This document shows positions 2,990 to 19,541 of a DNA stretch of 24,000 bases, piece after piece; position 1 is the stretch's first letter, and every line of letters begins with the position of its first letter. The stretch lies in the NCBI GenBank assembly GCA_021785005.1, contig JAJYGT010000128.1, positions 1,361 to 25,360 on the forward strand, in the 5' to 3' direction. The DNA is from Actinomycetes bacterium. GTDB taxonomy: Bacteria > Actinomycetota > Acidimicrobiia > Acidimicrobiales > Acidimicrobiaceae. The position numbers and the translations under genes were made by a program. The notes under the pieces were generated by a model, which searched no databases, was not told the DNA's origin, and was given only the letters and a program-made list of their open reading frames with translations.

Positions 2990-3961
2990 GTGGCTACAGT
3001 TTTATGGTTGCAGGGCGGCGCATGTTCTGGGAACACAATGTCGTTTACGACTGCGGAAGAACCGAGCGTGGTTGATCTGATAGTCGACTTTGGCTTGGAC
3101 CTGATTTGGCATCCATCACTAGGTGAAGAGCTCGGTGAAAATGCTAAGAAGATCTTCAAAGATGTCGCTTCGGGCGCTCGACCTCTTGATATTTTCGTGT
3201 TTGAAGGTACGGTAATTGAGGGTCCTGAAGGATCAGGCCGATTCAACATGTTTGCCGAGAGACCTATGAAAGATTGGGTAAATGATATCGCGGCGCAAGC
3301 GCAGATCGTCGTTGCCTTAGGAGATTGCGCGTGTTGGGGTGGCGTTCCCGCAACGGATCCAAATCCTACGTCGTCTACGGGCTTACAATTTCATAAGCGT
3401 GCCAAAGGTGGCTTCCTTGGTGCGGACTTCAAGTCGAAATTTGGACTTCCGGTCATCAATATCCCAGGATGCCCAGCTCATCCCGACTGGATCACTCAAA
3501 TTATCGTTGCTTTGGCGTCAGGTCGTGCCGGGGATATCGCCCTTGATGAGCTACATCGTCCTTTGACATTTTTTAAGAGTTTTACGCAAACCGGATGTAC
3601 TCGAGTTCAGTTCTTTGAATATAAGCAGTCGACTACGTCGTTTGGTGAAGGCACTAGAACTGGTTGTTTGTTCTATGAATTTGGGTGTCGTGGTCCAATG
3701 ACACATTCTCCCTGCAATCGGATCTTGTGGAATCGGCAATCGTCTAAGACCAGGGCTGGGATGCCTTGTACTGGATGTACTGAACCTGAATTTCCGTTCT
3801 TTGACCTAGCGCCAGGAACAGTGTTCAAAACCCAAAAGGTCAGTGGAGTGGTTCCCAAAGAGGTCCCCGAAGGCAATGACCACCTTACTTATATGGCACA
3901 TGCGATGGCAGCTCGAGTTGCAGCACCCCAGTGGTCAAAAGAGGACATGTTCGTGGTATAG
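2990..3961 (+). CDS. [NiFe]-hydrogenase small subunit, Tat-less cytosolic type (group 2a HupS/HucS-like, or 1h-like)
   Basis: 323 aa, GTG start with an AGGAG 12 nt upstream. The protein begins directly at the conserved WLQGGAC motif with no twin-arginine leader. Fe-S motifs present are GDCACWGG, PGCPAHP, QTGC, GCLFYEFGCRGP, SPC and PCTGC. The canonical CxxC reads C12-S-G-N15 and the canonical HxxC reads Q200-T-G-C203. Confidence 0.93.
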   Translation: MATVLWLQGGACSGNTMSFTTAEEPSVVDLIVDFGLDLIWHPSLGEELGENAKKIFKDVASGARPLDIFVFEGTVIEGPEGSGRFNMFAERPMKDWVNDIAAQAQIVVALGDCACWGGVPATDPNPTSSTGLQFHKRAKGGFLGADFKSKFGLPVINIPGCPAHPDWITQIIVALASGRAGDIALDELHRPLTFFKSFTQTGCTRVQFFEYKQSTTSFGEGTRTGCLFYEFGCRGPMTHSPCNRILWNRQSSKTRAGMPCTGCTEPEFPFFDLAPGTVFKTQKVSGVVPKEVPEGNDHLTYMAHAMAARVAAPQWSKEDMFVV

Positions 3962-4030: not shown

Positions 4031-5638
4031 ATGACGGCAGTAGATCTACATGTGAGCCCTTTAGGTCGCGTTGAAGGCGATCTAGATGTGAGGGTAACGA
4101 TTCAAGACGGCGTGGTGACGTCAGCCTGGACAGAGGCTTCGATGTTTAGAGGTTTTGAAATAATTCTGCGAGGTAAGGATCCACAGGCGGGATTAATTGT
4201 CACCCCTAGGATTTGTGGGATTTGTGGTGGAAGCCACTTGTACAAAGCGGCTTACGCACTTGACGTAGCGTGGCAAACCGAGATGCCTGAAAATGCGACA
4301 CTTGTTCGAAATATCGCGCAAGCTGTGGAGACTTTGCAGAGCATTCCAAAATACTTTTATGCGCTTTTTGCGATTGATCTAGTTAACAAGAAATATTCAA
4401 AATCACCCATGTACGAAGAGGCAGTACGTAGATTTGCTCCGTATGTGGGTGAACACTATCAAAAGGGTGTAATTTTATCGAACAAGCCCGTGGAAGTGTA
4501 CGCGATTTTTGGTGGGCAATGGCCACATTCAAGCTTCATGGTTCCAGGTGGTGTGATGTGTGCGCCTACCCTTTCTGATGTTACTAGATCTTTGGCAATT
4601 CTTGACTTTTGGAAAAATGAGTGGCTGGAGAAAATTTGGCTAGGCGGGTCGATTGACCGTTGGCTTGAGAATCAAACCTGGGAAGATATTTTGGTCTGGC
4701 TAAATGAGAGTAAATCTCATTATGACTCCGACTGTGGATTTTTCATCAGATATTGCCAAGACGTGGGGCTAGATCTATACGGGAAGGGCGTCGGAAATTA
4801 CCTGGCAACGGGGACTTATTTTGACCCAGCAAGCTATGCACGCCCGACAATTGACGCTCGAAACGCAGCACTTATCAACCGGTCAGGTATTTATGCCGAC
4901 GGTGACTTTTTTTCATTTGATCAATCTCGAGTGCGCGAAGATGTTACCCACTCTTTTTACGAGGGTACTACTTCTAGACACCCTTTTGAAGGTGAGACAT
5001 TGCCCATCGATCCAGCCCTTGGTAAGAAACAAGATAAATATTCATGGGCCAAGTCTCCAAGATACGATGTTCCAGGCAAAGGTCATGTTCCGCTAGAAGT
5101 TGGACCTCTTGCGCGCAGGGTCGTCGCTGGTTCGCCAGGTGCAACTTCACATCAGGATTATGATCCGTTATTTTTGAACGTTATCAATTCAATTGGTCCC
5201 TCGATCATGGTGAGACAATTAGCTCGTATGCACGAGGCACCTAAATATTTTAAGTGGGTCAAGCAGTGGTTGCACCAGCTTAATTTGCAAGAGAGTTTTT
5301 ACAAAAAGCCCGTAGAAATTGATAACGCCAAGGGATTTGGTGGAACCGAAGCAGCTCGTGGTGCACTATGTGATTGGATTGTTCTTGAAAATGGCAAGAT
5401 TGCCAATTACCAAGTGATCACCCCAACTGCCTGGAATATTGGTCCCCGCGATAAGGCTGGAGTTCTTGGACCCATGGAGAATGCGCTTGTCGGAAGTCCG
5501 ATTGTAGACGTTACGGATCCAATCGAATTGGGCCACGTGGCCAGGAGTTTTGATTCGTGTTTAGTTTGCACAGTTCACGCGTATGACGGCAAAAGTGGCA
5601 AAGAGTTGAGTCGCTTTGTTGTAAATGGCATGGTTTAG
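4031..5638 (+). CDS. [NiFe]-hydrogenase large (catalytic) subunit
   Basis: 535 aa. The N-terminal metal-binding motif is RICGICGGSH (C62/C65). The C-terminal motif is DSCLVCTVH (C510/C513/H516), followed by a 19-aa extension of the kind removed by the maturation protease. Confidence 0.96.
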   Translation: MTAVDLHVSPLGRVEGDLDVRVTIQDGVVTSAWTEASMFRGFEIILRGKDPQAGLIVTPRICGICGGSHLYKAAYALDVAWQTEMPENATLVRNIAQAVETLQSIPKYFYALFAIDLVNKKYSKSPMYEEAVRRFAPYVGEHYQKGVILSNKPVEVYAIFGGQWPHSSFMVPGGVMCAPTLSDVTRSLAILDFWKNEWLEKIWLGGSIDRWLENQTWEDILVWLNESKSHYDSDCGFFIRYCQDVGLDLYGKGVGNYLATGTYFDPASYARPTIDARNAALINRSGIYADGDFFSFDQSRVREDVTHSFYEGTTSRHPFEGETLPIDPALGKKQDKYSWAKSPRYDVPGKGHVPLEVGPLARRVVAGSPGATSHQDYDPLFLNVINSIGPSIMVRQLARMHEAPKYFKWVKQWLHQLNLQESFYKKPVEIDNAKGFGGTEAARGALCDWIVLENGKIANYQVITPTAWNIGPRDKAGVLGPMENALVGSPIVDVTDPIELGHVARSFDSCLVCTVHAYDGKSGKELSRFVVNGMV

Positions 5639-5652
5639 TTAGGGAGTTCTTA

Positions 5653-6183
5653 TTGCAAGAGTCTCGAAATAGGATTTCAGCCCTTGAGGCGGTCGGATAT
5701 GGTGACAGCGAAACACCAAGTTCTCGCGTTGTTATCGTTGGTTGTGGAAATTTGCTGCGCGGCGACGACGCTGTCGGGCCGGTGCTAATTCGAGAGTTAC
5801 TTTCACTTGATTTGCCCAGTGATGTGACTCTTGTGGATGGCGGAACAGCGGGTATGGACGTAGCGTTCAGAATGCGCGGAGCGGATTTTGCGATTTTGGT
5901 CGATGCATCAACCACTGGATCAGAGCCTGGGACGATTTTTCGGATCCCTGGCTCTGAGGTAGAGCAGTTGCCATCGTTAGATGCGATCCATAGCCACGCA
6001 TTTAGATGGGATCACTCACTTGCTTTAGCTCATTGGCTTTTAGGTGACCAATTTCCAAAAGATGTCGTGGTGTACCTAATCGAAGCGGAGAATTTAATGA
6101 TTGGAGATCCAATTTCGAGTAAAGTTCGGCTTGCGATGGACCAGGTCTCAAAAATGATTGAACTTGAGGTTCAGGCTAAATGA
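5653..6183 (+). CDS. Hydrogenase maturation endopeptidase (HyaD/HybD/HupD/HupW family)
   Basis: 176 aa. TTG start 6 nt after AGGGAG. Family motifs present: VIVGCGNLLRGDDAVGP, LVDGGTAGMD, ILVDAS. It lies immediately downstream of the large subunit. Confidence 0.88.
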   Translation: MQESRNRISALEAVGYGDSETPSSRVVIVGCGNLLRGDDAVGPVLIRELLSLDLPSDVTLVDGGTAGMDVAFRMRGADFAILVDASTTGSEPGTIFRIPGSEVEQLPSLDAIHSHAFRWDHSLALAHWLLGDQFPKDVVVYLIEAENLMIGDPISSKVRLAMDQVSKMIELEVQAK

Positions 6184-6596
6184 GCGAGGCTTTTGCTACT
6201 GTGCCCCCTGTTTCACTGCGGGTTTCAATTATCGATGGGAACATGTTGATTTCAGCGATTGATGCCGAGAAGTATTTTGGTTCGGGAGTAATCGGTGTTA
6301 GGGCAAATGGGCGATACCTAGACGTCTATCCACTCAATTCAAGTGAGAACGGTGGCACCTATTTGAAGACGCGTGACAGCCACAAAAACCGATCCGCCTT
6401 TATCGAGGAGGTTCTTCGGGAAATTCCAAGAAGCGTACAAGGATCTTTTGTTGGGACCTGGAGTGTGGACTTTGGCTGTTTTAAATTTCTCATTCACAAC
6501 GCCGAAGCGCTACAGATGCCAACAAACGCAAATGACAACACCTTGAGAATCCAATGCACGCAAGGTAGTGAGAAAAAGGACGCGCTATGCCAATGA
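6180..6596 (+). CDS. Hypothetical protein (orf138), hydrogenase-cluster accessory gene
   Basis: 138-aa ORF. Its ATG overlaps the protease stop (ATGA) and its stop overlaps the next start, which implies translational coupling. I recognise no domain. Confidence 0.6.
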   Translation: MSEAFATVPPVSLRVSIIDGNMLISAIDAEKYFGSGVIGVRANGRYLDVYPLNSSENGGTYLKTRDSHKNRSAFIEEVLREIPRSVQGSFVGTWSVDFGCFKFLIHNAEALQMPTNANDNTLRIQCTQGSEKKDALCQ

Positions 6597-7855
6597 TACC
6601 AATGGAAACTAACGAGCAGATCGTGTTGGATATTGAGGCTCAACCTCTTGGGATTTTTTCGTGGCCAGCAGGCATGATGCTAATCGAAGGCTCTTCTTGG
6701 AATCAAGACGTGCTTAAGGCGCTTGGTAGCGGAAAATATCCCCGAGAATATCCTCCTGGGTTGAACTACTTAGAAACTGCTTTATCGGGTGGAGATACCG
6801 AGTTGGTTCTAAAGCAACTTTTGGATCAAGCGTCGCCAGATAATGTGGTGGTTGATTTCAATTTACTAGTGGTGGATCCTACTTTTGAACGGTACTTTGG
6901 CTTGTGCAAGGTCGCGACCGGAGATTTTCTGGCCTTGGTACAGCTGCAAGGTTACATCAATAACTACTGCACTTTGCCCGAGGTAGACAGCGCCAAATCG
7001 CCGTTGGTTCGTTCACTGTTGTGTTCTGCGAAGGCATCTGAACTGCTTGCGGCAAATGATCGCGTTGGGTCAATATCAAATCTTCGAGCAGCGATTAGCT
7101 ATTCGACATCTGTGTCGCCAATCTTGGCCGCGGCCCATCGCAGTGACTTGGCAGAAATACTGATGCGAGACGGCAGAAATGGTGTTGAGGCGATCGGACT
7201 TTGGCGCCAAGCGTTGATCGATTTGACGCACAGCGATTTAAATGGCCTCAAGGCCCAGATTCATTTAAGCCTTGCAATAGCACTCCAAGTAGTCCAAAGT
7301 GGTCATCCGAATGCACTTCGTGAAGCGGTTGGTCACTATCTAGATGCCACTCGATTGGTTAGCGCGGAGTCAGACCCATTGATTTTTGGAACTGCTCATA
7401 TGAATCTTGGACTCGCATATCTCTCGATGCCAATGACAGATGCGTCGGATCAGCTCAGGTATGGCATAGCTATTTCATCCTTGAGACAGGCGGTAGCAGC
7501 TTTTGACCGTGAACTTTATCTCGAGTCATGGGCCGGTGCGAGGCTTAATCTGGCCAATGCTTTAGTTTATGCTCCATCGTCTCACGCCAATGATAATTTG
7601 ACCGAAGCACTTTCTATGTATGAGGAGCTATTGCAGATAAAAAGAGATCTGCAAGACCCGGTTGGCTATGCAAGAATATGCGCAAATCAGGGCAATGTTA
7701 TGGCTCATTTAGGAATGTATGATTACGCGAAAGCCAAACTTCATGAGGCCAGGTCGATTTTTGAAGAGTTTAACATGCTCGCTGAGACCGCGACTATTAG
7801 AGAAATACTTGATGGGATAGAGCGAGAGCGAGTTGGTAGGGGGTCTAAAAGTTGA
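6587..7855 (+). CDS. TPR-repeat protein, hydrogenase-cluster accessory gene
   Basis: 422 aa. The C-terminal two thirds contain repeated TPR-like helix pairs (AHMNLGLAYLS, ARLNLANALVYA, ARICANQGNVMAHLGMYDYAKAKLHEARSIFEE). Both flanking genes overlap it. Confidence 0.72.
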   Translation: MPMIPMETNEQIVLDIEAQPLGIFSWPAGMMLIEGSSWNQDVLKALGSGKYPREYPPGLNYLETALSGGDTELVLKQLLDQASPDNVVVDFNLLVVDPTFERYFGLCKVATGDFLALVQLQGYINNYCTLPEVDSAKSPLVRSLLCSAKASELLAANDRVGSISNLRAAISYSTSVSPILAAAHRSDLAEILMRDGRNGVEAIGLWRQALIDLTHSDLNGLKAQIHLSLAIALQVVQSGHPNALREAVGHYLDATRLVSAESDPLIFGTAHMNLGLAYLSMPMTDASDQLRYGIAISSLRQAVAAFDRELYLESWAGARLNLANALVYAPSSHANDNLTEALSMYEELLQIKRDLQDPVGYARICANQGNVMAHLGMYDYAKAKLHEARSIFEEFNMLAETATIREILDGIERERVGRGSKS

Positions 7856-8235
7856 CGCAAGCATGGAGTCAATCGATGTTTGAAGTATTCATGTTTGGAG
7901 CCCAAGAGCGCTTTATTGATCGAGCCCTAACACATTTTGAAGGTCAAGATAACGCTCTAAGTGCCTTTGCCGACCCAGAAATTGGGAAGTCGAAGTTGGT
8001 AGTTGATTTCGTAGACGCACTTTTTTGCGACTTTAGTTTCGACAATATTGGTGGAGCATGTTTTGTTTTGCAGGCTTTGGCAAATAGACCGGTTGAAATC
8101 AACTGTATCAAGGGCACAATCGGCGATGTGTTGTTGCAACTAGCGAAATCGACATTTACTGAACTTTTGATTAAGCGGTGCTTTGAAGGACTTGAGTTGA
8201 TCGCAAGTTACGACTTTCGCCCGAGTGCGATTTAA
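7852..8235 (+). CDS. Hypothetical protein (orf127), hydrogenase-cluster accessory gene
   Basis: 127-aa ORF. The TTG start overlaps the upstream stop (TTGA); an in-frame ATG at 7876 (MFEVFMF) is an alternative. No domain recognised. The coding call rests on operon context and length. Confidence 0.5.
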   Translation: MTQAWSQSMFEVFMFGAQERFIDRALTHFEGQDNALSAFADPEIGKSKLVVDFVDALFCDFSFDNIGGACFVLQALANRPVEINCIKGTIGDVLLQLAKSTFTELLIKRCFEGLELIASYDFRPSAI

Positions 8236-9142
8236 AGAAATTCAACTATTAAGTGTAACTTTGGTTGAAATGGAGGTAGCAGTGGTTCAAGAAGTTTCAT
8301 CAGCGGATGAAAGTCTTGCTGATTTTGAGCGAAGGGCCAAGGAGCTAGACGATGCCCTAGAAGGACTTGACAATCTTGACGAAAGGTCAAAAAAGAGCGC
8401 CTACGCGATAAAAGATTCGCTTGAAAGCTACTACATCATGGCTGTAAAACGCGCCGTAGAGATTCTGTTAGGACAAGGTGACCTGGGGTTAACTACTTTG
8501 CGAACGCTTTCATCGGATCCCATTGTACGGGCGCTATTTACCAGCGCTGGAGTGATCCAGACTGGACCAACCGAACGGGTGTTCAAAACATTGGCCTCTG
8601 TCAAGCCTTATCTTGATTCTGCTGGTGTGAGTGTCGAAGTGGTGAATATCAACCTCCCAGAGGTCTTAGTGCGACTGCGAGGAAATTTCGGTTCGTGTTC
8701 TTCATCGAAAGAACAACTTTTAGAAGAGATTCAAGAAATTATAATTTCGAACGTGGGCGAGGTCAGTAAAGTCCGAGCCATTGATGACAATGACCCTGAT
8801 CTTTTGAAACTTAGTCCTACTAGACGAAAAATTCCACAGTGGGAAATTGGACCAGCGCTAGAAGATATCGTTGATTATGGCGTATTGCCATTTACTATTG
8901 GCGAAGAGCGCTTGATCCTTACCTCGGTTGCGGGCGAGTTATCGTGCTTTAGGAATAGGTGTGCTCACCTAGGGATGGAACTAGATCGAGCGACGCTCGA
9001 CGTTGACGGGACTTTGGTGTGTCCGTGGCATAGGTTTTGTTTCGACGCTATATCTGGCGAATGCTTGACTATCCCGGGGGTTGAACTAGAGAAGTTTTCC
9101 GTTCGAGTCGAGGACGGAAGCGTAATGGTAAAACTAAAATGA
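8225..9142 (+). CDS. Putative Fe-S protein: NifU-C-terminal-like domain fused to a Rieske-type [2Fe-2S] domain (HucE/HhyE-like)
   Basis: The Rieske motif is C-A-H-x17-C-P-W-H (CAHLGMELDRATLDVDGTLVCPWH). The central region VFKTLASVKPYLDSAGVSVEVVNINLPEVLVRLRGNFGSCSSS resembles a NifU C-terminal domain. The track start is GTG at 8225. ATG 8270 or GTG 8282 (5 nt after GGAGG at 8272-8276) are more plausible starts. Confidence 0.8.
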   Translation: MRFKEIQLLSVTLVEMEVAVVQEVSSADESLADFERRAKELDDALEGLDNLDERSKKSAYAIKDSLESYYIMAVKRAVEILLGQGDLGLTTLRTLSSDPIVRALFTSAGVIQTGPTERVFKTLASVKPYLDSAGVSVEVVNINLPEVLVRLRGNFGSCSSSKEQLLEEIQEIIISNVGEVSKVRAIDDNDPDLLKLSPTRRKIPQWEIGPALEDIVDYGVLPFTIGEERLILTSVAGELSCFRNRCAHLGMELDRATLDVDGTLVCPWHRFCFDAISGECLTIPGVELEKFSVRVEDGSVMVKLK

Positions 9143-10233
9143 GCATGCATGAGCCGTTGGCGTGGGTTGGTTCGCCGAGTCTTGGAGGATTGAGGCTTCC
9201 AAGTGCAAAGTTGTCTCCATCATCGCTATATGCCCCTCGAGGCGTGTGGACCGACGGGAAAATGTTGGTTGTTGCCGACACTGGAAACCATCGGGTAATG
9301 ATTTGGAACGAGCTACCAAGATACGATCAAGCACCTGCTGACATCGTCCTTGGTCAGCCGGACTTTTTGAGTGAAGGTCCAAATACCAACGGTTTTGAGT
9401 ATGGTATGAACCTTCCAACTGGTGTGTGTTATGAAGACGGCCGTTTGATCGTCGCTGATGCGTGGAACCATAGATTGCTGGTATGGGACAAACTACCCGA
9501 TCATAATTGTGCCCGAGCTGATCATGTAATAGGCCAACAAGATCTATTTAGCGTTGAGGTCAACGCGGGCCAGAGTTGTGGACCGACATCGCTTTACTGG
9601 CCCTTTGGAATAGGGTTTGTGGGCGGCCGATTTTGGATTACCGACACCGGAAACAGACGCGCTTTGGCGTTCGAACATCTTCCTTTGCATGGTGAAAAGC
9701 CCGATTTGATATTAGGGCAATCTGATGGGTATCAAAACGAAGAGAACCGTGGTGGGCTTACGGAAAATAGTTTTCGCTGGGTGCACGCCGTTGCCGGCGA
9801 CGACGATTACGTATTTCTAGCCGACGCTGGCAATCACAGAGTCCTAGTTTGGCCGAGTGACGTGCGTTATGATAGTGTTCCGCTTGCCGCAGTTGGACAG
9901 ATTGATCTGCTCTCTGCCTATGAGTTTTCCCTGGGCCCGCAAAATGCAAAAATGCTGCGGTTCCCTTATTCAGTTACGTGCGATAAAAAACGATTGGCGG
10001 TTGCGGATACAGCCAATAACAGGATCTTGATTTATGACAACTATCCGCTTGAATGCGGACTTCCGGCAGATTCAGTTATTGGTCAAATTGATCTGGTGTC
10101 GAACGGTGAAAACCGTTGGCAGTCCGTTACGCATGAAACATTGTGTTGGCCATATGGTATTTGCATGAGCGGTGAAATATTAGCTGTTGCTGACTCTGGA
10201 AACAATCGTGTGATGCTGTGGCGCTTGTCTTAA
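9139..10233 (+). CDS. NHL-repeat six-bladed beta-propeller protein, hydrogenase-cluster accessory gene
   Basis: 364 aa with six [VIL]-[AT]-D-[TAS]-x-N-x-R-[VLAI] units: VADTGNHRV, VADAWNHRL, ITDTGNRRA, LADAGNHRV, VADTANNRI, VADSGNNRV. Five of them are followed by a ..D.[VI][LI]GQ.D linker. The ATG overlaps the upstream stop (ATGA). Confidence 0.87.
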   Translation: MSMHEPLAWVGSPSLGGLRLPSAKLSPSSLYAPRGVWTDGKMLVVADTGNHRVMIWNELPRYDQAPADIVLGQPDFLSEGPNTNGFEYGMNLPTGVCYEDGRLIVADAWNHRLLVWDKLPDHNCARADHVIGQQDLFSVEVNAGQSCGPTSLYWPFGIGFVGGRFWITDTGNRRALAFEHLPLHGEKPDLILGQSDGYQNEENRGGLTENSFRWVHAVAGDDDYVFLADAGNHRVLVWPSDVRYDSVPLAAVGQIDLLSAYEFSLGPQNAKMLRFPYSVTCDKKRLAVADTANNRILIYDNYPLECGLPADSVIGQIDLVSNGENRWQSVTHETLCWPYGICMSGEILAVADSGNNRVMLWRLS

Positions 10234-10325: not shown

Positions 10326-10619
10326 ATGTGTTTGGGAGTGCCGGGTCAAGTGATGGAGCTTTGGACAGAATCTGAAGTGATTATGGGAACCGTAGATTTT
10401 ATTGGGATAAGGCGCAAAGTTTGTTTCGCATCGCTTCCCGAGGTGCGAGTCGGGGAGTATGTATTAGTTCATGTTGGGTTTGCGCTCGCACGCCTGGACG
10501 AAGATCATGCTTTAGAGACAATTCAGCTAATGCGAGACCTGGGAATTTTCGAAGATGAACTCGGCGTGGGTTTAAGTCAATTTTTAGATTCGGATACCGA
10601 TTCGGTTTCACAAAACTAG
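10326..10619 (+). CDS. hypC: Hydrogenase assembly chaperone HypC/HupF family
   Basis: 97 aa beginning MCLGVPGQV, the invariant N-terminal Cys2 motif. The RBS is AGAGGAAA. Confidence 0.92.
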   Translation: MCLGVPGQVMELWTESEVIMGTVDFIGIRRKVCFASLPEVRVGEYVLVHVGFALARLDEDHALETIQLMRDLGIFEDELGVGLSQFLDSDTDSVSQN

Positions 10620-10646: not shown

Positions 10647-13016
10647 ATGTTGGTTCAACCTCGCATTGGCAAGCTCGAAGCTTTTGAAGTTACGATTTCG
10701 GGAATCGTGCAGGGCGTTGGCTTTCGTCCTCATATCTATCGTCGTGCGATTGAGCTAGGGCTCAATGGTTGGGTTGCCAACTCCCCTGAAGGTGTTCTGC
10801 TTTACCTGGAGTTAGAATCTGATCGCATTGAACAAGCGATTCACGACCTGCTACTTGATCTCCCAGAAGTTGCCAGGGTGGATCTATGGCGGATAAATAA
10901 AGTTGAGCCCACACATTTGCAGGGCTTTGAAATTTGTCAAACCCTTTCTGGTGGAAATTTCGCTGCGGAAATGTCGCCTGATTTGGCCGTTTGTGCTGAT
11001 TGTTTAACAGAGATGCGAGACCCGGGTAATCGGCGATTTGCTTATCCCTACATTAGCTGTACTAACTGTGGTCCCAGATACTCGGTTATGACCAGTTTGC
11101 CATATGACCGCAAGAATACAACAATGCGAACCTGGAAAATGTGTCAACAGTGCGACGAGGAGTATCGAAACCCGTATGACCGACGGTACCATGCCGAGCC
11201 AATCGCTTGTTTTGAGTGTGGTCCCGTTTTTAATCTGTACGAAGTAGATGCCGATGGATCATCGTTTGTTATACGCGAAGGTTCGGCGAAGTCGATCATA
11301 GATTCTATCGTCATCCTCTTGGAAAGTGGGGGAATTGCTGCAATCAAAGGTATCGGCGGTTACCACCTTGCATGTGACGCTTTTGATGCCAAGGCTGTAA
11401 AAAGGTTGCGTGACCTAAAGTTTCGTAAAGAAAAACCGTTTGCGCTATTGGTCAAAAATATAGAAGTTGCAAAGAAACTTTGCGAGGTATCTGGATCCGC
11501 TGAACAGCTTCTTGGGTCAAGATCTGCGCCAATTGTACTGTTGCCTGAGACAAATACTATCGAGGGAATTGCACCCGATGCGGCGAGGCTCGGAATAATG
11601 TTGCCTTATACGCCCGTACAGCATCTTTTGTTTGACTATGGTGCTCCAGAAGTTTTGGTTATGACCAGTGGAAATCGATCGTCCGAGCCTATCACGATCG
11701 ACGATGATGAGGCTTTGGATCGATTTTTGGGTATTGCAGATGCGGTGCTCGTAGGTGAGCGGGCAATCGCGAGACGACTAGATGATTCAGTTCTTGAACT
11801 TGGTGACGCTCCACGTTTTATTCGCAGGTCACGCGGATATGCACCATCCTTTGTAACAAAAATCGAGGCTCAAGGAACTTTTTTGGGTGTTGGATCAGAT
11901 TTAAAGTCAACCGTCTCGTTATTGGTAGACAACAAGGCTCTTATTTCTCAATACTTAGGTGACCTTAGCTATTTTGAAGTCCAGGAGTCACATAAGAAAA
12001 CCGTCAATGATCTTCTCGATCTTTATAGTGTTGATCCTTCGAGTGTCACGATTTGTGCTGACTTACACCCTGGTTATTACTCGACCAGGCTGGCTAGCGA
12101 GTACTCCTCGGATTTCAACGCTAAGAGCCCGTACTTTTTTCAGCACCACCGCGCCCACATTGCATCGGTTCTGGCTGAGGCAAATGTTTGGGAAGCCAAT
12201 GTTGTCGGAGTTGCACTTGATGGTACTGGCTACGGAGATGATGGGACTATTTGGGGCGGCGAGTTTTTCTTCGGTTCAATGAATGATGGTTTCACACGAA
12301 TCGCAAGTCTTGAACAAGGAGTGCTGCTAGGTGGCGATGCCGCGGCACAACGACCGCTACAAGCCTTGGCTGGATTGATTTCCAGCGATGCAGTCTGGGA
12401 ATTATTGGGCAGTGACATCTTTGGTGTAGCACCCGATAGTTTTAAAACAACTTCAAGTCTGCGTGCATCGCTTGGGCAGACGAGCACAAAAACCTCTTCT
12501 GCGGGGCGGTTATTCGATAGCTTCGCTGCAATTTGTGGCTTTGTTAGACCTATGACCTATGAAGGACAAGCCGCCATGTGGCTTGAGTCACTAGCTGCGA
12601 GTCTTGAGGATAAGCAAAAGAAAAATGTCAGTCCCTATTATTTTAGTTTTGATCAATCAGTGATGTCGTATCAAGGCGCGCTTGGCCAGGCAATTACCGA
12701 TCGACTGAATGGCGTTTCGCCCGCACTCATTGCTGGCAGATTTCACGCTGGATTCTGTGACGCGATTGCGAACCTGGTTCTAAATGCGGTCACGCTATAT
12801 CAAGTTGATACTGTTGTGCTAGCAGGCGGCGTATTCCAAAATCAGATCTTATCCCGTGAAATAATCTCTAATTTGTCGGGTAACCACATACAAGTCTTGG
12901 CTAATAGGCGACTGTCATGCAATGACGAGAATATTTCACTTGGGCAAATCGCGCTGGCATCGTTCGGTAACGTCCATACTCAAACTCTAGGAAAGAGTGA
13001 ACGTGTTGAATCTTGA
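10647..13016 (+). CDS. hypF: Carbamoyltransferase HypF
   Basis: 789 aa. It has an acylphosphatase-like N-terminus (VQGVGFRPHIYR), two Zn-finger pairs (CADC..CTNCGPRYS; CQQC..CFECGP), a YrdC-like domain (IKGIGGYHLACDA) and a Kae1-like C-terminal domain. Confidence 0.96.
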   Translation: MLVQPRIGKLEAFEVTISGIVQGVGFRPHIYRRAIELGLNGWVANSPEGVLLYLELESDRIEQAIHDLLLDLPEVARVDLWRINKVEPTHLQGFEICQTLSGGNFAAEMSPDLAVCADCLTEMRDPGNRRFAYPYISCTNCGPRYSVMTSLPYDRKNTTMRTWKMCQQCDEEYRNPYDRRYHAEPIACFECGPVFNLYEVDADGSSFVIREGSAKSIIDSIVILLESGGIAAIKGIGGYHLACDAFDAKAVKRLRDLKFRKEKPFALLVKNIEVAKKLCEVSGSAEQLLGSRSAPIVLLPETNTIEGIAPDAARLGIMLPYTPVQHLLFDYGAPEVLVMTSGNRSSEPITIDDDEALDRFLGIADAVLVGERAIARRLDDSVLELGDAPRFIRRSRGYAPSFVTKIEAQGTFLGVGSDLKSTVSLLVDNKALISQYLGDLSYFEVQESHKKTVNDLLDLYSVDPSSVTICADLHPGYYSTRLASEYSSDFNAKSPYFFQHHRAHIASVLAEANVWEANVVGVALDGTGYGDDGTIWGGEFFFGSMNDGFTRIASLEQGVLLGGDAAAQRPLQALAGLISSDAVWELLGSDIFGVAPDSFKTTSSLRASLGQTSTKTSSAGRLFDSFAAICGFVRPMTYEGQAAMWLESLAASLEDKQKKNVSPYYFSFDQSVMSYQGALGQAITDRLNGVSPALIAGRFHAGFCDAIANLVLNAVTLYQVDTVVLAGGVFQNQILSREIISNLSGNHIQVLANRRLSCNDENISLGQIALASFGNVHTQTLGKSERVES

Positions 13017-13092
13017 TGTCGGGAGAACAAATTAATTGAGTTTGCTAAAGAGGATATCGCTTTCATAAAAAGGTTTAACTGGAGGTATTTGA

Positions 13093-14205
13093 ATGAAAAT
13101 GGTTGATGAGTACCGGAATCCGAAGCAGATTTTGTCTCTCGCTGCAAAGATCGGCGATGCTGTACAAGATAGAGGATATCGCTTTATGGAGATTTGCGGC
13201 GGGCACACCCACTCCATCTATCGCTTTGGGTTAAGTGATTTGCTTCCTAGGAATATTGAACTGATCCACGGGCCTGGATGTCCGGTTTGCGTATTGCCGA
13301 TTGGAAAAGTCGATGAGGCACTGACGCTAACAAATGACCCCGACGTTATCCTGTGTGCATTTGGCGATGTTATGAGAGTTCCTGGATCTAAAGTATCCCC
13401 GTTGCAAGAGAGGGCGCGCGGCAAGGACATTCGTATGGTTTATTCGCCCTTGGACGCGCTGAAGATCGCAGTGCAAAATCCGTTAAAACACGTAGTGTTT
13501 TTTGCCATTGGTTTTGAGACCACAGCTCCGTCGACGGCTTTGACCATCATGCAAGCGAGTCAGATGAAGCTTACAAATTTTTCAGTATTTTGTAACCATG
13601 TGACAGTGGGACCTCCAATTAGGTCAATTTTGGAGAGTGCTGAGCTTGATTTGGACGGGTTTGTTGGCCCAGGTCACGTCTCTGCGGTTGTTGGAACCAA
13701 GGTTTATGATTTCGTTGCGCAAGAGTTCGGTCGTCCGCTGGTGGTATCTGGCTTTGAGCCTGTGGACATACTGGAATCTTTGCTCTTGTTGATCAACATG
13801 GTAAATCGCAAGGACGGATCAATTTATAACCAGTACGTGCGAGCAGTAAAGCGTGAAGGCAACTTGGCGGCGATCAATGCGATGTCTGAGGTTTTTGAGG
13901 AAAGGTCACGCTTTGAGTGGCGGGGTCTTGGATTTATCGATCAATCGGCACTAAAGATAAAAGAAAAGTATGCTCCATTTGATACAGAGATGCGCTTTAC
14001 AATACCCGCAATTCGAAGTCCTGAGCCCAAGAATGCAATTTGCGGAGATGTGCTGATCGGCGCAAAACGTCCGGAGCAGTGCGAGCTACTAGGTAAAAGT
14101 TGCACTCCGGAGAGCCCCGTTGGCGCACTTATGGTCTCATCCGAAGGTGCCTGCTCGGCATACTACACCTACGTGCATAGAACTTTAGCGACAGTGGAGG
14201 GTTAA
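13093..14205 (+). CDS. hypD: Hydrogenase Fe(CN)2CO-assembly protein HypD
   Basis: 370 aa with the conserved motifs CGGHTHSI, GPGCPVCV, GFETTAP and GPGHVS. Confidence 0.96.
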   Translation: MKMVDEYRNPKQILSLAAKIGDAVQDRGYRFMEICGGHTHSIYRFGLSDLLPRNIELIHGPGCPVCVLPIGKVDEALTLTNDPDVILCAFGDVMRVPGSKVSPLQERARGKDIRMVYSPLDALKIAVQNPLKHVVFFAIGFETTAPSTALTIMQASQMKLTNFSVFCNHVTVGPPIRSILESAELDLDGFVGPGHVSAVVGTKVYDFVAQEFGRPLVVSGFEPVDILESLLLLINMVNRKDGSIYNQYVRAVKREGNLAAINAMSEVFEERSRFEWRGLGFIDQSALKIKEKYAPFDTEMRFTIPAIRSPEPKNAICGDVLIGAKRPEQCELLGKSCTPESPVGALMVSSEGACSAYYTYVHRTLATVEG

Positions 14206-14213
14206 AAGACCAA

Positions 14214-15248
14214 ATGGAACCAACGATTAGATTTAGTGATAAAGAAATTCTTTTAGCTCACGGTTCAGGTGGTAAAGCAAGTAGAAGGCTCATTGAAGGC
14301 CTTATCGTTCCAATTCTTTCCTCTCCAGAGCTAGAACGTCTGAACGACGCGGCAACTGTGAAGGTCGGCAGTGACGATGTGGTAGTGACGACTGATTCTT
14401 TTGTGGTCAGTCCCAGGGTATTTTCCGGCGGATCAATCGGTGAGCTGGCGGTAAATGGGACTCTTAATGATTTGGCAGTTTCTGGTGCTGAACCTATTGC
14501 GATTACTTTGGCGATGATCCTAGAGGCGGGGTTGTCAACACAAGACCTTACCCATGAGCTTTTGGCAATTGCCAAAAGCGCTCGCGATGCAGGGATTGAG
14601 ATTGTAACTGGAGATACAAAAGTTGTAGAGCATGGAAAAGCTGATGGTATTTTTATTACTACTACCGGGATCGGCCGTATGCATCAAAATGCGCAACTTT
14701 CGGTCGAGCGCGCACGGCCCGGGGATAGAGTTCTTTTATCTGGGCCTATAGGAGATCACGGTATCACCGTTTTACTTGCGCGTGGAGAAATTGATCTCCA
14801 GGCCGATGAACTCGTATCAGACACTCGGAGCGTGTGGCCATTCATAAATACACTTCTTGATACATTTGGAGCAGAAGTGAAATGGATAAGGGATCCAACT
14901 AGGGGTGGATTAGCGACTACGTTGAACGAGTTTGCAACTGCAGCAGAGCTGCAAGTCCTGATTGACGAGGAGAACGTCGTCATAAATCCGCCAGTTCGCG
15001 GCGCTTGTGAAGTTCTTGGCCTGGATCCGTTTCATATCGCAAACGAGGGACAATTTGTGGCGATCATCTCAGACAAAGTTGCCGCCCATGCCGAATCTTT
15101 ACTTAAATCAATGCCGGGTGGCCATAATGCGCGACTTATAGGTTCGGTTACCGAGGGTTCGGTACCCATCGTCTTGTGTAAGACTGCCTATGGTGTAACT
15201 AGGGTTCTTGATATGCTAAGCGGAGATCCTTTGCCTAGAATTTGTTAG
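14214..15248 (+). CDS. hypE: Hydrogenase maturation (thiocyanate-forming) protein HypE
   Basis: 344 aa with a PurM-like fold signature and the diagnostic C-terminal PRIC motif ending the protein. Confidence 0.96.
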   Translation: MEPTIRFSDKEILLAHGSGGKASRRLIEGLIVPILSSPELERLNDAATVKVGSDDVVVTTDSFVVSPRVFSGGSIGELAVNGTLNDLAVSGAEPIAITLAMILEAGLSTQDLTHELLAIAKSARDAGIEIVTGDTKVVEHGKADGIFITTTGIGRMHQNAQLSVERARPGDRVLLSGPIGDHGITVLLARGEIDLQADELVSDTRSVWPFINTLLDTFGAEVKWIRDPTRGGLATTLNEFATAAELQVLIDEENVVINPPVRGACEVLGLDPFHIANEGQFVAIISDKVAAHAESLLKSMPGGHNARLIGSVTEGSVPIVLCKTAYGVTRVLDMLSGDPLPRIC

Positions 15249-15327
15249 AAAATTTAGCACGGCTACTCACCGCTAGTGATTTTGGTGACTAAGGGCACAC
15301 CGTGCTTCAATTCCTAATTTTAATCTG

Positions 15328-16953
15328 TTATGGTAGTGCTGGTAAACCTGTGGGATTTGGGACTTCCGCCCAAGTCGTTGGTGCATTTGGCGACGCCACG
15401 GGAAGCGGATAGAATGGCGAATTGACATTCTTGAGACGCGTGTCATAGATCAGCGCCCTTTGCGAGTGTGCACCAATGCAGTTAGTCGAGCTGCTTGGAA
15501 AGCCATTGATTCCCGCGTAATTTGCTACGACATTGCCATACAACATGATTTGATCATACGATGTTCCGCCTGCATTTGTGCAATCTGGAACTTGCAACGT
15601 AAATGAACCATTCATGGCAAAGATAGAGGCCATAACCACAGCGTCGTTGGCATTCATCTGTTTTGGTAGCTGAGACGAACAGTTGTCGCTTGGGGTTCCG
15701 GTCCAGGTCGTATTTGCCATTTCTACATTATTGGTTGCAACTAACCCAAGAACGTCTTGATTGGTAGTTGCACAATCGGCATAAAGCAGATTGCCATCTA
15801 TCACAATGTTGTCATCGGCGCCAATGGTAAGCGCGCCACCCGTAACGCCTTGAACAACTGCAGTTCCGTCGGTGCACGGGTAAGTGTAATTGTCGATGGT
15901 TATGTTTCCAGAGACCTGACAAGTAGTTGCATTTGCCACATAAATGGTTCCACTATTTACAGTCACCGACGCACCAGTCGTGTTCGCCAATCCAGACCCT
16001 CCGCATGCAACGTAATTTGGAACGGTAGATGGCGTTTCTGGGCTATATACCTGCACTGTAGGTGTAGGCGCGCTGGTAGTTGATCCGGGAGAGTTGGTGA
16101 CGGTAATTTGAGTAGGGCCCTCGTAGTAGCATCCGTTGGTGTAGGCCGCGCCGATCAAATTTGTCGGTGAAGGCGGTACATTGATCGAGCCTAAGCTAGA
16201 CGGCATAATTACAGGACTAGATACCGTAACTGGATTAGACGAAACTGCTCCGCAGTTTCCGGAAGAGGTGTCGATATAGCCACTTGCGCAAGTGCCAGAC
16301 TGTGTGGCGCCTGTTTCTAAAGTATTTTTGAAGCTGTTGGCTTGGTGGAGATAATAATTGCCATTGGTATACATAGTGCCAGGTGGAGCCCAGCTTGGAG
16401 CCGGCACGTTATTTAGTACATAATATTGCGGATTACCAGACATAGCATTTGCCAGCGCTGGGAGCATGGTCATTGAGTTGTAATAGAGTTCGAAATTAGC
16501 AAACGTGTTAGGTGAAATTGTCTCTTGGACGGTTCGTTCTTGAGTCTGTGCACCATGAAGAGTAACGCCAGTAGCGGTAAGTACGATATTTTTGCTCGTT
16601 GACGCGTAACTGGTGCTGTAGTGGAAGTATTCATTGGTAGAACCAGGTACTTGAACCCAGCCGGTAAGTGCGGCGTTTGGAGATGTCGTCGAGCTATTTT
16701 GGTTTAGTTGATTTAGGTAATCAGATACGCCAGATTCTGCTGCGGTTAGCGCTGATTGATAGTCTTGATTACCTCTGGCCAAAGGTTGCAAGCTGGTTGA
16801 GTTTATATAAGTCACAATCGGGATCATAGCTAGTAGCATGACTGCAATCACGGCTATGGTTACGGCCAGATCTCCACGGTCGGCGTCGCTAGCACGAACT
16901 TTGTGACCACTACGGTACAGCTTGGCAATGTGTTTAATTTGGATTGGTTTCAT
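15328..16953 (-). CDS. Large PilX-like type IV minor-pilin/tip-associated protein (Ser/Thr/Asn/Gly-rich, multi-Cys)
   Basis: 541 aa. An N-terminal basic leader is followed by the hydrophobic helix LAVTIAVIAVMLLAMIPIV. Next comes ARGNQDYQSALTAAESGVSDY, which resembles the PilX N-terminal domain pattern (..N......A..aAEsG). The rest is low-complexity and secreted-looking, with paired Cys. It is the last gene of a three-gene pilin-like operon. Confidence 0.6.
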   Translation of the reverse strand: MKPIQIKHIAKLYRSGHKVRASDADRGDLAVTIAVIAVMLLAMIPIVTYINSTSLQPLARGNQDYQSALTAAESGVSDYLNQLNQNSSTTSPNAALTGWVQVPGSTNEYFHYSTSYASTSKNIVLTATGVTLHGAQTQERTVQETISPNTFANFELYYNSMTMLPALANAMSGNPQYYVLNNVPAPSWAPPGTMYTNGNYYLHQANSFKNTLETGATQSGTCASGYIDTSSGNCGAVSSNPVTVSSPVIMPSSLGSINVPPSPTNLIGAAYTNGCYYEGPTQITVTNSPGSTTSAPTPTVQVYSPETPSTVPNYVACGGSGLANTTGASVTVNSGTIYVANATTCQVSGNITIDNYTYPCTDGTAVVQGVTGGALTIGADDNIVIDGNLLYADCATTNQDVLGLVATNNVEMANTTWTGTPSDNCSSQLPKQMNANDAVVMASIFAMNGSFTLQVPDCTNAGGTSYDQIMLYGNVVANYAGINGFPSSSTNCIGAHSQRALIYDTRLKNVNSPFYPLPVASPNAPTTWAEVPNPTGLPALP

Positions 16954-16984
16954 TTCTCATATACCTCAAAGTTAATTTCGCGTA

Positions 16985-17620
16985 CTAGCCAGGGGTCAGT
17001 GCGACGTTCCTCATCTCAATGGTGTTTTGCACTGTGGTGCTTGGTTGGTTTGCATACGGCTGTATCGTTGCATTGATTCCGATGGATTCGATTGCACTAC
17101 TCGAGCCAGAATTCAAAGGTGGCGGAAGATATGTGAAGACGTTGGCTGATGTTAGGTTATTCACGGAATAACGAAGAGTATTATTTGACCCAATAACGTA
17201 TTCGTCGAAACTGCAAGGACAACTTGTGGAAGCAGTCGTATTAGGACAGGTCGTGGATGGCGTTGAACTTGAACTTTGGACAATCATACACACGGTGATT
17301 GGATTACCAAGGGAATCAACGGTGTAGAACTCAAGCTGGCTTGGAGTATTGTAAATGATCGGACTGGCACTAGCTGTTGGAATAACTGCATTGCGGATGT
17401 CGAGTGCTATGCGATTGAAAGTGACCATCGCACTCGAAGTCGCTTGAGTATTAGATGCGACAGATTTCTGCACGGTCTCAAAATTGCTTATCACGCTGAG
17501 AACAGTGATGGTAATGAGTATAAATATCGACGAAGCGACGCTTAACTCAATCAGGGATAACCCTGAATCTTTGTCAAGTCGTCTTCGCTGAGTTTTGAAT
17601 TGCTTTACAAATTTTCTCAT
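16985..17620 (-). CDS. Prepilin-type N-terminal cleavage/methylation-domain protein (PilW/GspJ-like minor pilin)
   Basis: 211 aa. It has a class III signal: a basic leader ending ...DKDSG, then LSLIELSVASSIFILITITVLSV with Glu at +5 relative to the predicted G|L cleavage site. Confidence 0.78.
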   Translation of the reverse strand: MRKFVKQFKTQRRRLDKDSGLSLIELSVASSIFILITITVLSVISNFETVQKSVASNTQATSSAMVTFNRIALDIRNAVIPTASASPIIYNTPSQLEFYTVDSLGNPITVCMIVQSSSSTPSTTCPNTTASTSCPCSFDEYVIGSNNTLRYSVNNLTSANVFTYLPPPLNSGSSSAIESIGINATIQPYANQPSTTVQNTIEMRNVALTPG

Positions 17621-17628
17621 TTACAATC

Positions 17629-19023
17629 CTATGAGTTGACTGTTATCGTCACTGGTGCCCCTCCAGGCGGGGTATTCGTCGCGTCGATGATAGATGTTGT
17701 TGGCGCGGTTGGCGCACTTGATCCAGCTGTTACGGCTGCGAGAGCAAAGTAGCCATTAGGCAGATTTAGTACTGCGTTTCCGTTTGCATCCGTTGTGACT
17801 GGTATTGCTATGGGAGAAGGTGTGCAGCTCGACGTCGAGGTTAGAGTGGGATATTGCCATACATAAACAGAAAGTGCGGTATTGGCCGCTACAGGCGTTG
17901 AACTCGAGTTGACAAAACTGGCAGCAAGCGTCGAATACGCAAGATTTGCTAGATTTGAGGTTCCTCCAGGGGTCACGCTAACGGACAATGGTACTGTACT
18001 CGCGGGCGAAAAGCCGGTGCAAGTACCAAGCCACGTTTGGTAACCGCTCGTTGCTGGAAATATCGCTGGGGAGGTCTTGAAGTTGTCAGACGACACGGTG
18101 AGTGCGAGTGGTGAATCTCCCTGCGTGGTGAGGTAATTATTGTTGGCTGACAGGCCAAACTCACTGGCAATTTGGGTTTGTGGAGCACCTTGTATCTCCA
18201 AATATGAACCTTGGTCATAAGTGAACTGTAGTGCCGAGGTAACTCCCGCGGAGACAGTAGTCGACTGAATGGGATTGGGTATATCTGATTGATCCACATA
18301 GACTGAGTCTTGGTCAGAGGGCGCTGAGATAGTTACCTTGTCAGGTCCTGAAGATGACGGCGATACATTAGGGAAAAATGCACAACCATTTACATCGGTG
18401 GTGGAGGAAGACTGGACTAAACCATTTGAGTCCTCTAAGGTAACTGGCACTGTTGCTTGAGGGAGTCCGGCCGCATTTACCACCGATACTAAAACGCTAC
18501 CGTCAGACCCTCCGAAGAGGCTTGACGGGGCATTTAGAGCTTCAGACAGTGTAACGGGTTGGGACAATCTTTGATTTGGCCAGGTTACAGCTATTGCTGC
18601 TTCTAAAACCGGTGGCGTGCTGGAGGCAGAATAACCGCTTGAGAAGTTGCTCGAACATCCACCTTGTGCAAAATTAGAGGATGACCACGAAAGTGTAGTC
18701 TTTACAGTGTAATTCATCTGGCCGACGTTAACGGTGCTTGAACTAGACGCAGAGGCGGTACTGGCGGTTATCGAGTAGTTGGAGAGCAACGTCGAAAAGT
18801 TACCCTGAGCCTGGGCTCGAATTTGTTCCATTTGCTGAGTTGCTAGATTTGCCGCAACCACGCGGTGTTGGTTGTCACTCGAAATTGCCAACGTATTTTC
18901 AATTAGGTCAGCTGCTGGAATTAAGGTGAGCAGTATTAGCACGGACGCGATTACTACGCCGATGATGCTCATTCCATCGTCAGTAAGACTTTTATCGTAC
19001 GGGCAGCGCGCCGCTGTTTTCAT
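17629..19023 (-). CDS. PilV-like minor-pilin-like protein with large Ser/Thr-rich extracellular region
   Basis: 464 aa. The leader MKTAARCPYDKSLTDDG is followed by MSIIGVVIASVLILLTLIP, a hydrophobic helix with Gly rather than Glu at +5. Then comes AANLATQQMEQIRAQ, resembling PilV. Internal segments resemble small beta-sandwich modules (VSVVNAAGLPQATVPVTLEDSNG...DVNGCAFFPNV; VTTDANGNAVLNLPNGYF). No obvious RBS precedes ATG 19023. Confidence 0.55.
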   Translation of the reverse strand: MKTAARCPYDKSLTDDGMSIIGVVIASVLILLTLIPAADLIENTLAISSDNQHRVVAANLATQQMEQIRAQAQGNFSTLLSNYSITASTASASSSSTVNVGQMNYTVKTTLSWSSSNFAQGGCSSNFSSGYSASSTPPVLEAAIAVTWPNQRLSQPVTLSEALNAPSSLFGGSDGSVLVSVVNAAGLPQATVPVTLEDSNGLVQSSSTTDVNGCAFFPNVSPSSSGPDKVTISAPSDQDSVYVDQSDIPNPIQSTTVSAGVTSALQFTYDQGSYLEIQGAPQTQIASEFGLSANNNYLTTQGDSPLALTVSSDNFKTSPAIFPATSGYQTWLGTCTGFSPASTVPLSVSVTPGGTSNLANLAYSTLAASFVNSSSTPVAANTALSVYVWQYPTLTSTSSCTPSPIAIPVTTDANGNAVLNLPNGYFALAAVTAGSSAPTAPTTSIIDATNTPPGGAPVTITVNS

Positions 19024-19541
19024 GTGGATCGTATCGGTAATAATAAATTTTTTCTTTAGGGGATAGATGCCGACAAACCGTTACGATTGGTTCGCTAGAT
19101 CAACAAGATACGAAAAATTTCCTACACGGTTAGTCGAAAGCATGAAATTATTGGATTGATAACCATAAAGGTCACGTTGGAACCCACGATCGAACTGACT
19201 TATATCATTATTGCCTCAAGACATAGCGTTAGAGAGATTGTCTAAGGCTGTCTTTTGTCGAGCGCTCACTCTATAAATAGCTCTACAAGGAACGGAGCAG
19301 TACGCAAACAAATGCGCGTTTAGGTGAAGACGCACTCACCCTAGTTGAGAGAAGAGTTCATCTGACTTTCTTGTCAAGTTCCTCGGTACGGGAAGAACTT
19401 GGTTTTCTTGGTAAGAGTTGTCTGATTAGACGCGAATCGAGCAAGTGACATTGATTTTCGTTTTCAGTTGGCAGGCTGGCACAATATAAATTACACGTCA
19501 ACGACGGTCGAACGACCGAACGTTACCACTTTGTAGTTTCG

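Follow-up and report, generated by a model that had tools for sequence, protein, structure and literature searches.

Accessory genes lying between the structural genes of a group 2a uptake hydrogenase and the hyp genes were described in 2008, in Nostoc sp. PCC 7120 and N. punctiforme, as an extended hyp operon (Agervald 2008, PMC2408588; Holmqvist 2011, PMC3126725). The Nostoc open reading frames (ORFs) asr0689, asr0690, alr0691, alr0692 and alr0693 are co-transcribed with hyp and confined to uptake-hydrogenase strains, and the authors proposed, by analogy with HupGHIJK, that they serve small-subunit maturation (PMC2408588; PMC3126725). We analyzed a stretch of 24,000 nucleotides (the window; contig JAJYGT010000128.1 of assembly GCA_021785005.1, positions 1,361 to 25,360) from an uncultured actinomycete metagenome-assembled genome (MAG). 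Its hydrogenase operon, which we assign to the Huc-type, group 2a, carries a corresponding block of five + strand genes at 6180-10233, between the maturation endopeptidase gene and hypC: orf138 (6180-6596, 138 aa); an hcaA-type TPR-containing protein (6587-7855, 422 aa); orf127 (7852-8235, 127 aa), an acidic protein predicted to have five helices; a HucE-type protein (8225-9142, 305 aa) made up of a helical N-terminal region, a NifU-like domain and, at the C-terminus, a Rieske [2Fe-2S] domain; and an hcaB-type, six-bladed NHL-repeat beta-propeller (9139-10233, 364 aa). As in Nostoc, two small ORFs, a TPR gene, a NifU-like gene and an NHL gene lie between the group 2a hydrogenase and hyp; judging from the published order and sizes, both small ORFs precede the TPR gene in Nostoc, whereas in the window one precedes and one follows it. 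Based on our comparison, we propose, with a probability of roughly one half, that the five genes form a set dedicated to the maturation and assembly of Huc, acting together with the endopeptidase.

The best-studied relative is the mycobacterial huc operon (MSMEG_2261-2270), which likewise encodes HucM, the small and large subunits (HucS and HucL), a protease, a TPR protein, HucE (MSMEG_2268) and an NHL protein; the loci L046 and L048 of our collection are comparable. There, a domain resembling orf138 lies within the 285-aa protease, a small gene of 85 aa comes next and orf127 is absent. The window, in contrast, has a split protease and orf138, has orf127, lacks the other small gene (the sixth family below) and reads FxxC in place of CxxC in the NifU-like domain of HucE. 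The gene order of the Parageobacillus thermoglucosidasius 2a locus (PMC12976888), hypA-hypB-S-L-protease-hypothetical-TPR-hypothetical-NifU-NHL-hypC, is identical to that of the window; transcripts of its two hypothetical genes and of its NifU gene rise several hundred-fold along with those of the structural genes (PMC12976888). In the same RNA-seq data, the TPR, NHL and hypB genes stand at ~0.02-0.04 fragments per kilobase per million (FPKM) in all conditions, with neighbours in the hundreds to thousands (PMC12976888); an artefact of mapping or annotation may explain these low counts. The names hcaA (TPR) and hcaB (NHL) for group 2a genes follow HydDB, and a paper on Kyrpidia calls their functions unclear (PMC7248562). 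In Islam 2020, the genes commonly found near hucL include hucE and those for NHL and hypothetical proteins.

The block is thus a long-known conserved set of group 2a operons, to which the window adds another member. An earlier note on this DNA had called it biochemically undescribed and the likeliest place in the window for new biology. The former is right insofar as its function is still called unclear, but the block has been known since 2008, hcaA and hcaB have names and a HucE knockout exists. The latter does not hold for a block already described in Nostoc and Parageobacillus. What is new here is the link of orf138 to a protease domain, the orf127 and sixth families, the division into core and optional members and the degenerate NifU motif of HucE.

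The link between orf138 and the endopeptidase emerged from family-level comparison. orf138 itself has no Pfam, NCBIfam or PDB sequence match, and a word-index search that used orf138 alone returned no other sequence. A first-pass phmmer comparison of orf138 with the collected loci matched small ORFs behind the protease as well as the C-terminal part of unusually long proteases (E 1.7e-5 to 7e-4); phmmer and hidden Markov model matches were obtained in 12 loci, and in L008-L013, L046 and L048 the matching region is in frame with the protease. A database search with a concatenated orf138 and orf127 alignment returned at least 687 matches at E<=1e-3 in a collection of 5.8 billion proteins. Among the best 120 of these matches, 118 resemble orf138, with 12 invariant columns. 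Of them, 56 stand alone at a length of ~100 aa, and in 59 the domain forms part of a PF01750 protease of 250-366 aa. In the fused form, the orf138-like domain occupies ~residues 180-285 of the protease (profile E 1e-27 to 1e-35), and such proteases include proteins of Mycobacterium, Mycolicibacterium and Pseudonocardia. The window's own endopeptidase (5653-6183, + strand) is a HycI-type [NiFe]-hydrogenase maturation endopeptidase of the short form, with 176 aa (Pfam HycI 3.5e-13, TIGR00072 5e-37), and lacks this C-terminal domain. Judged from these alignments, the orf138 core (~100 residues, ~6180-6510) is the C-terminal domain of long-form Huc endopeptidases in a free-standing form. The earlier note had seen no recognisable domain in either small ORF; orf138 can now be taken as a detached domain of the long-form endopeptidase. 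These fused proteins indicate that orf138 acts with the endopeptidase. Our literature search on protease C-terminal extensions found nothing relevant.

Several standalone orf138-like proteins (P0013, P0041, P0061, P0065, P0071 and P0098) are annotated as "hydrogenase maturation protease", though they do not contain PF01750. At the M. aichiense locus L050 (CP192571.1), where the orf138-like domain is standalone, the group 2a protease region at 8450-9001 carries no called gene.

The AlphaFold2 (AF2) model of orf138 is beta-rich with one helix, and its predicted local distance difference test (pLDDT) score is 72 overall and ~85 for residues 11-110; residues 111-138 are predicted to be disordered and are unconserved. 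In a Foldseek search with this model, all top PDB matches were to MraZ (probability 0.9-0.98), at a weak E of ~0.05 and template-modelling (TM) scores of 0.44-0.47. MraZ has the AbrB/MazE/MraZ-like fold. Profile and structure searches with orf138, of the kind proposed in the earlier note, gave nothing in Pfam, NCBIfam or PDB sequences and this weak structural match. With MraZ, a transcription factor, as the only consistent structural match, orf138 and the protease C-terminal domain could be a DNA-binding regulator of the AbrB/MazE/MraZ type, through which the state of maturation would act back on huc transcription; according to a 2026 paper, no direct transcription factors have been identified for the mycobacterial huc operon. 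We consider this very improbable. Besides the weakness of the match, profile support is lacking: none of 56 orf138 family members had a Pfam match, to SpoVT-AbrB, MraZ or otherwise, the family profile found no PDB match at E<=10, and an hhalign comparison of the N and C halves (probability 0.3) revealed no internal repeat. The median isoelectric point (pI) of the family is 6.1, which is not basic. MraZ is a DNA-binding oligomer; the orf138-like domain, which shows no sequence relationship to it, is instead fused to a protease, and being covalently joined to one suggests that it binds proteins. A likelier regulator is the product of the AraC-family gene (AraC_binding_2 and HTH_18; 122-1225, - strand), which lies upstream of hucM and divergent from it, and which we regard as a candidate huc regulator in view of that 2026 paper on the mycobacterial operon. 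An AraC-family gene is found at the same site in L004, L007, L008, L046 (Mycobacterium type), L048 (Pseudonocardia) and L050.

We collected loci in four ways, through the large subunit (L003-L006), HucE relatives (L007-L013), orf138 relatives (L046-L051) and a metagenome scan for orf127 (L014-L045). Wherever the flank suffices, the order is (hucM-hypA-hypB)-S-L-protease-[orf138-like]-TPR-[orf127-like]-HucE-NHL-hypC or hypF, and it is kept in ~45 loci of several phyla, whose GC content spans 47-75%; known sources include Actinomycetes, Gemmatimonadaceae, Anaerolineaceae, Mycobacterium and Pseudonocardia. All 32 metagenome loci retrieved by orf127 alone, which form 19 clusters at 70% identity and have 47-69% GC, carry orf127 downstream of hucSL, flanked by the TPR gene and HucE. 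Lack of co-occurrence with hydrogenase loci, which the earlier note had named as a result that would count against it, is clearly not what we find, since all 32 loci sit in hydrogenase operon order; its view that these genes are a dedicated set is borne out, and they are co-inherited with the hydrogenase. The median identity to the window is 79% for the small subunit, 70% for the large subunit, 55% for the protease and 52% for the NHL protein, and 36% for orf127, 34% for the TPR protein, 32% for HucE and 28% for orf138. Such faster divergence of the accessory proteins than of the catalytic subunits would fit adaptors or chaperones. Even the nearest relatives of the two small genes are <50% identical, a distance at which synonymous sites are saturated.

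These data also bear on the idea that orf138 and orf127 are spurious or decaying ORFs between real genes. Neither has a Pfam or NCBIfam match, the word-index search with orf138 returned only itself, and its tail (111-138) is unconserved and predicted to be disordered. However, >600 proteins match the combined profile, with the 118 orf138-like proteins and 12 invariant columns noted above for the best 120; the orf127 family counts 59 representative clusters at E<=1e-10, and orf127 itself is modelled at pLDDT 92.7; and both small genes hold their position across phyla. The numbers of homologues, the orf127 model and the conserved position refute this reading, to which we give practically no weight.

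orf127 was also found to belong to a defined family. A profile search of 1.84 billion representatives yielded 77 clusters at E<=1e-3, including the 59 at E<=1e-10, with members from Pirellulaceae and Bacteroidota MAGs, a median pI of 4.9 and the conserved motif FV.A.F.D..LDN..GACFVL.AL. The AF2 model of orf127 has five helices (pLDDT 92.7, predicted TM score 0.85). The checks suggested by the earlier note gave, for orf127, a confident model; there was no Pfam, NCBIfam or PDB sequence match, and the model matched no PDB fold (best E 1.9). In the loci compared, this small helical family is found only between the TPR gene and HucE. A Pirellulaceae MAG protein of 563 aa (P0146, MEZ6096829.1) joins a TPR part (residues 2-396) to an orf127 part (432-530); its sequence makes a TPR-orf127 fusion plausible, and its last ~30 residues look frameshifted. 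Other candidate fusions of orf127 with HucE or with the TPR protein (P0156, P0177, P0179, P0193 and P0200) were rejected as frameshifted calls with low-complexity stretches. Nor is orf127 split into two small ORFs as in Nostoc, the short matches (60-97 aa) being fragments on short contigs, or hidden in TPR proteins of 469-472 aa, whose extra part is a low-complexity tail.

Direct reading of the window confirmed the five ORFs and the four junctions at which the earlier note had them chained by overlaps (6180, 6587, 7852 and 9139). The protease stop and the orf138 start overlap in ATGA (6180-6183), orf138 and the TPR gene in ATGCCAATGA (6587-6596), the TPR gene and orf127 in TTGA (7852-7855), and HucE and the NHL gene in ATGA (9139-9142). 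That these overlaps imply stoichiometric co-expression with the protease, as the earlier note had it, is an inference from the overlaps and not a result. The overlap at 7852 deserves comment: the automatic gene caller starts orf127 at ATG 7876 (119 aa), and homologue N-termini (MEAWSQSMF and MHAWEAQVF) align with MTQAWSQSMF, read from TTG 7852. The automatic start probably truncates helix 1 of orf127, and the TTGA overlap is probably real because the homologue N-termini fit the TTG start. A possible fifth overlap of 11 nt, between GTG 8225 and the orf127 stop TAA at 8233-8235, hinges on the HucE start, for which GTG 8225, ATG 8270 and GTG 8282 (5 bases past GGAGG) are equally good candidates; HucE homologues align only from ~residue 32 onward. 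Across the loci, the HucE-NHL junction is <=15 nt in 42 of 42 cases and the protease-orf138 junction in 33 of 33, and the TPR-orf127 and orf127-HucE junctions are tight in 30 of 37 and 26 of 40, respectively; these figures are upper estimates, since the script takes the start codon nearest the upstream stop.

The block is not of fixed composition. orf138 was not detected in L004, L016, L021 and L022. orf127 is present in all split-protease loci retrieved independently of it (L003-L007, L047 and L049). A sixth small family of ~70-85 aa, for which we found no name, lies between the orf138-like and TPR genes in 28 of 47 loci and has the motif G.W.VYLEV.F...R.RI..Y.T...AE.AA.W..R.A.RD. Its carriers include the nearest relative L003 (8395-8598), the Mycobacterium-type L046 (9858-10115) and the Pseudonocardia locus L048 (9768-10028); the corresponding site of the window (~6510-6587) does not contain it. 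Because the small members vary, the core of the block would be the protease (with or without the extra domain), the TPR protein, HucE and the NHL protein.

The core members other than the protease are recognizable to different degrees. Pfam TPR matches in the TPR protein are sub-threshold (below the gathering scores), and its match to LGN/Pins TPR chains in the PDB (5.5e-9) is confined to the C-terminal part (~residues 333-396); its orthologues are nevertheless full length, with residues 4-415 of the query aligned in all loci (phmmer E 1e-53 to 1e-140). The NHL protein (Pfam NHL 8.6e-25) has six [AT]D..N.R blades at residues 46, 106, 168, 228, 289 and 351, ~60 apart, and aligns end to end with the NHLRC2 propeller (6gc1; 4e-10); its gene stands closely behind HucE in every locus. 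TPR and NHL domains bind proteins. HucE, which is an orthologue by position and by full-length alignment with seven relatives, matches Pfam Rieske (9.8e-14) and, at residues 121-183, NifU (1.3e-10). The Rieske motif CxH...CxxH is intact (RCAHLG...CPWH), whereas the NifU CxxC is degenerate: residues 153-158 (~8681-8698) read GNFGSC, with the first cysteine replaced by phenylalanine. L003, L004, L007 and nearly all other loci have the CxxC (G[AS]C..C), and the nearest relative L003 reads GACTGC. At this site L021 reads CKGR, and the NifU core is missing from L032. Both of these loci, the window and nearly all complete HucE sequences retain the Rieske motif.

HucE is the member on which experiments bear. 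Islam 2019 showed that M. smegmatis HucE is needed for Huc activity and that a hucE deletion is not rescued by nitroblue tetrazolium (NBT), an artificial acceptor of electrons; electron transfer and maturation were left undecided, an electron-acceptor role being favoured on five arguments, and these hydrogenases lack a cytochrome b subunit (Islam 2019). Grinter 2023 found that purified Huc consists of HucS, HucL and HucM only, that it contains three [3Fe-4S] clusters and a D-histidine in HucL, and that Huc-bound menaquinone lies beside the distal cluster and is reduced directly. For the four genes other than hucE, we found no data in the literature searched, so that the statement of the earlier note that only the iron-sulfur protein (HucE/HhyE) has genetic evidence holds for that literature.

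One could conclude from HucE that the block is a redox module, in which HucE uses its high-potential Rieske cluster, with the NHL and TPR proteins as helpers, to pass electrons between Huc and the respiratory chain, or to reactivate Huc reductively or shield it in air; the block would then serve the mature enzyme and not its assembly. This agrees with the retention of the Rieske motif where the NifU CxxC is lost (the window and L021) or the NifU core is missing (L032), with the preference of Islam 2019 and with the missing cytochrome b subunit. We nonetheless consider it unlikely. The purified enzyme has no subunit besides HucS, HucL and HucM and directly reduces the menaquinone bound beside its distal cluster (Grinter 2023); NBT staining was not restored in the hucE deletion, though NBT bypasses the physiological acceptor (Islam 2019); and a redox module leaves the fusion of an orf138-like domain to the endopeptidase unexplained. 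The composition of purified Huc and its direct reduction of menaquinone also disfavour the electron hand-off role that the earlier note had suggested. A maturation and assembly set is favoured instead because orf138-like domains are fused to the endopeptidase, HucE is required yet absent from Huc, and no extra electron carrier is needed. The finished enzyme probably has none of the five proteins as a subunit or electron carrier.

Two known systems help to judge a maturation role. The closest working analogy is HupGHIJK/HoxOQRT/HyaEF of O2-tolerant group 1d hydrogenases, a set of aerobe-specific chaperones or redox helpers for iron-sulfur maturation of the small subunit. According to the Nostoc authors, these share no sequence homology with the block, and they serve a small subunit exported by the twin-arginine translocation (Tat) pathway, whereas that of the window has no Tat leader. 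The group 1h (Hhy) set is similar in that HhyE, a NifU-like iron-sulfur protein, is needed for activity; HhyE differs in having CxxC motifs in place of the Rieske motif. L050 allows a comparison within one genome: its opposite-strand cluster at 12923-18315, which we take as group 1h from its accessory genes since the fetched stretch has no hydrogenase subunit, encodes a short HycI protease, DUF6084, DUF6893, DUF6390 and a NifU-like protein, and contains no orf138, TPR or NHL gene. The earlier note had placed TPR, NHL and Rieske-type genes in both 1h and 2a clusters; this is correct for group 2a and too broad for group 1h, in which the L050 set differs and HhyE has CxxC motifs.

From the homology, fusion, synteny, domain content and packing that we observed directly, we infer the physical interactions and biochemical steps of the following scheme for the maturation and assembly set. 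First, orf138 would bind the short protease and serve as an adaptor when the C-terminal extension of HucL is removed, the last step of large-subunit maturation, holding either the substrate or the next factor. Second, the TPR protein, with orf127 where present, would be a scaffold that receives processed HucL or apo-HucS. Third, the HucE-NHL pair would act on the unusual iron-sulfur relay of HucS, supplying it, converting it or keeping it reduced, ahead of the mounting of S-L dimers on HucM. A bolder version, which we offer as speculation of low probability, is that the block installs features unique to Huc: the all-[3Fe-4S] relay of HucS, the D-histidine of HucL, or the loading of S-L dimers onto HucM. 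The MraZ/AbrB-like domain would then be an adaptor tethered to the protease, linking removal of the HucL tail with the hand-over to the TPR/orf127 scaffold and HucE-NHL, and orf127 would have a helical fold not seen before.

Several points weigh against such a maturation and assembly set. Four of the five proteins have no known interaction, activity or phenotype. The fusion ties orf138 to the protease without saying what orf138 does, and the MraZ/AbrB fold suggested by its model is a weak lead without sequence support. orf127 is absent from every locus with a fused protease and orf138-like domain (L008-L013, L046 and L048); this exclusion could be a lineage effect or a functional trade-off. 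No single small member is indispensable, since orf138, orf127 and the sixth gene are each missing in some loci. Finally, the loss of CxxC in the window and L021, with the Rieske motif kept, as read from the sequences, weakens the step in which HucE would donate clusters and leaves room for a redox role.

The remainder of the window supports the class that we assigned. All genes from 1361 to hypE form one long + strand hydrogenase operon. Its first gene (1361-1891) encodes a homologue of HucM, the membrane-associated stalk subunit, and matches HucM of M. smegmatis Huc (PDB 7UUS, chain 7uus_Q) over its full length (residues 8-176, E 1.3e-16). This protein belongs to PF07849, which appears as DUF1641 in our Pfam-A scan and as HMP in precomputed matches; HMP stands for helical membrane plugin according to a 2026 paper on a Bacillus NADH dehydrogenase scaffold. 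hypA and hypB follow on the + strand, and then the genes of the [NiFe]-hydrogenase small subunit (2990-3961, +; Pfam Oxidored_q6 and NiFe_hyd_SSU_C) and large subunit (4031-5638, +; 535 aa; Pfam NiFeSe_Hases). The small subunit, without a Tat leader, opens with MATVLWLQGGACSGN and so enters the conserved N-terminal motif straight away; the large subunit has a C-terminal extension after CLVCTVH. The closest large subunits are from Actinomycetes MAGs (86-89% identity), followed by Gemmatimonadaceae (~70%), and those of loci that all have HucM, HucE and NHL genes are 64-91% identical. After the block and a gap of 92 nt, which is usual between the NHL gene and hypC in relatives too, come hypC (10326-10619, +), hypF, hypD and hypE. 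Because the first gene matches HucM, we regard the operon as Huc-type and its large subunit as probably of group 2a; the identities to large subunits of loci with HucM, HucE and NHL genes support this class indirectly. The window sequence also matches a contig of the MAG assembly GCA_027351545.1. Beyond hypE, four - strand ORFs of 541, 211, 464 and 295 aa (15328-20429) have no Pfam match except a sub-threshold CarboxypepD_reg in the 464-aa ORF, and an RNase H gene (21987-22460, +) follows them.

Huc-type hydrogenases, which oxidise atmospheric H2 in air, are under development as catalysts, and the accessory block is the obvious candidate for what Huc needs outside its native hosts. Our comparison parts a core set, consisting of the protease domain, the TPR protein, HucE and the NHL protein, from the optional orf127 and sixth gene, and it indicates that the NifU CxxC of HucE is dispensable in some lineages. 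In L050, the single genome that allowed comparison with a group 1h-type cluster, the accessory set is found in the group 2a operon only. The fusion of its relatives to the protease ties the first small gene of the block physically to the endopeptidase step.

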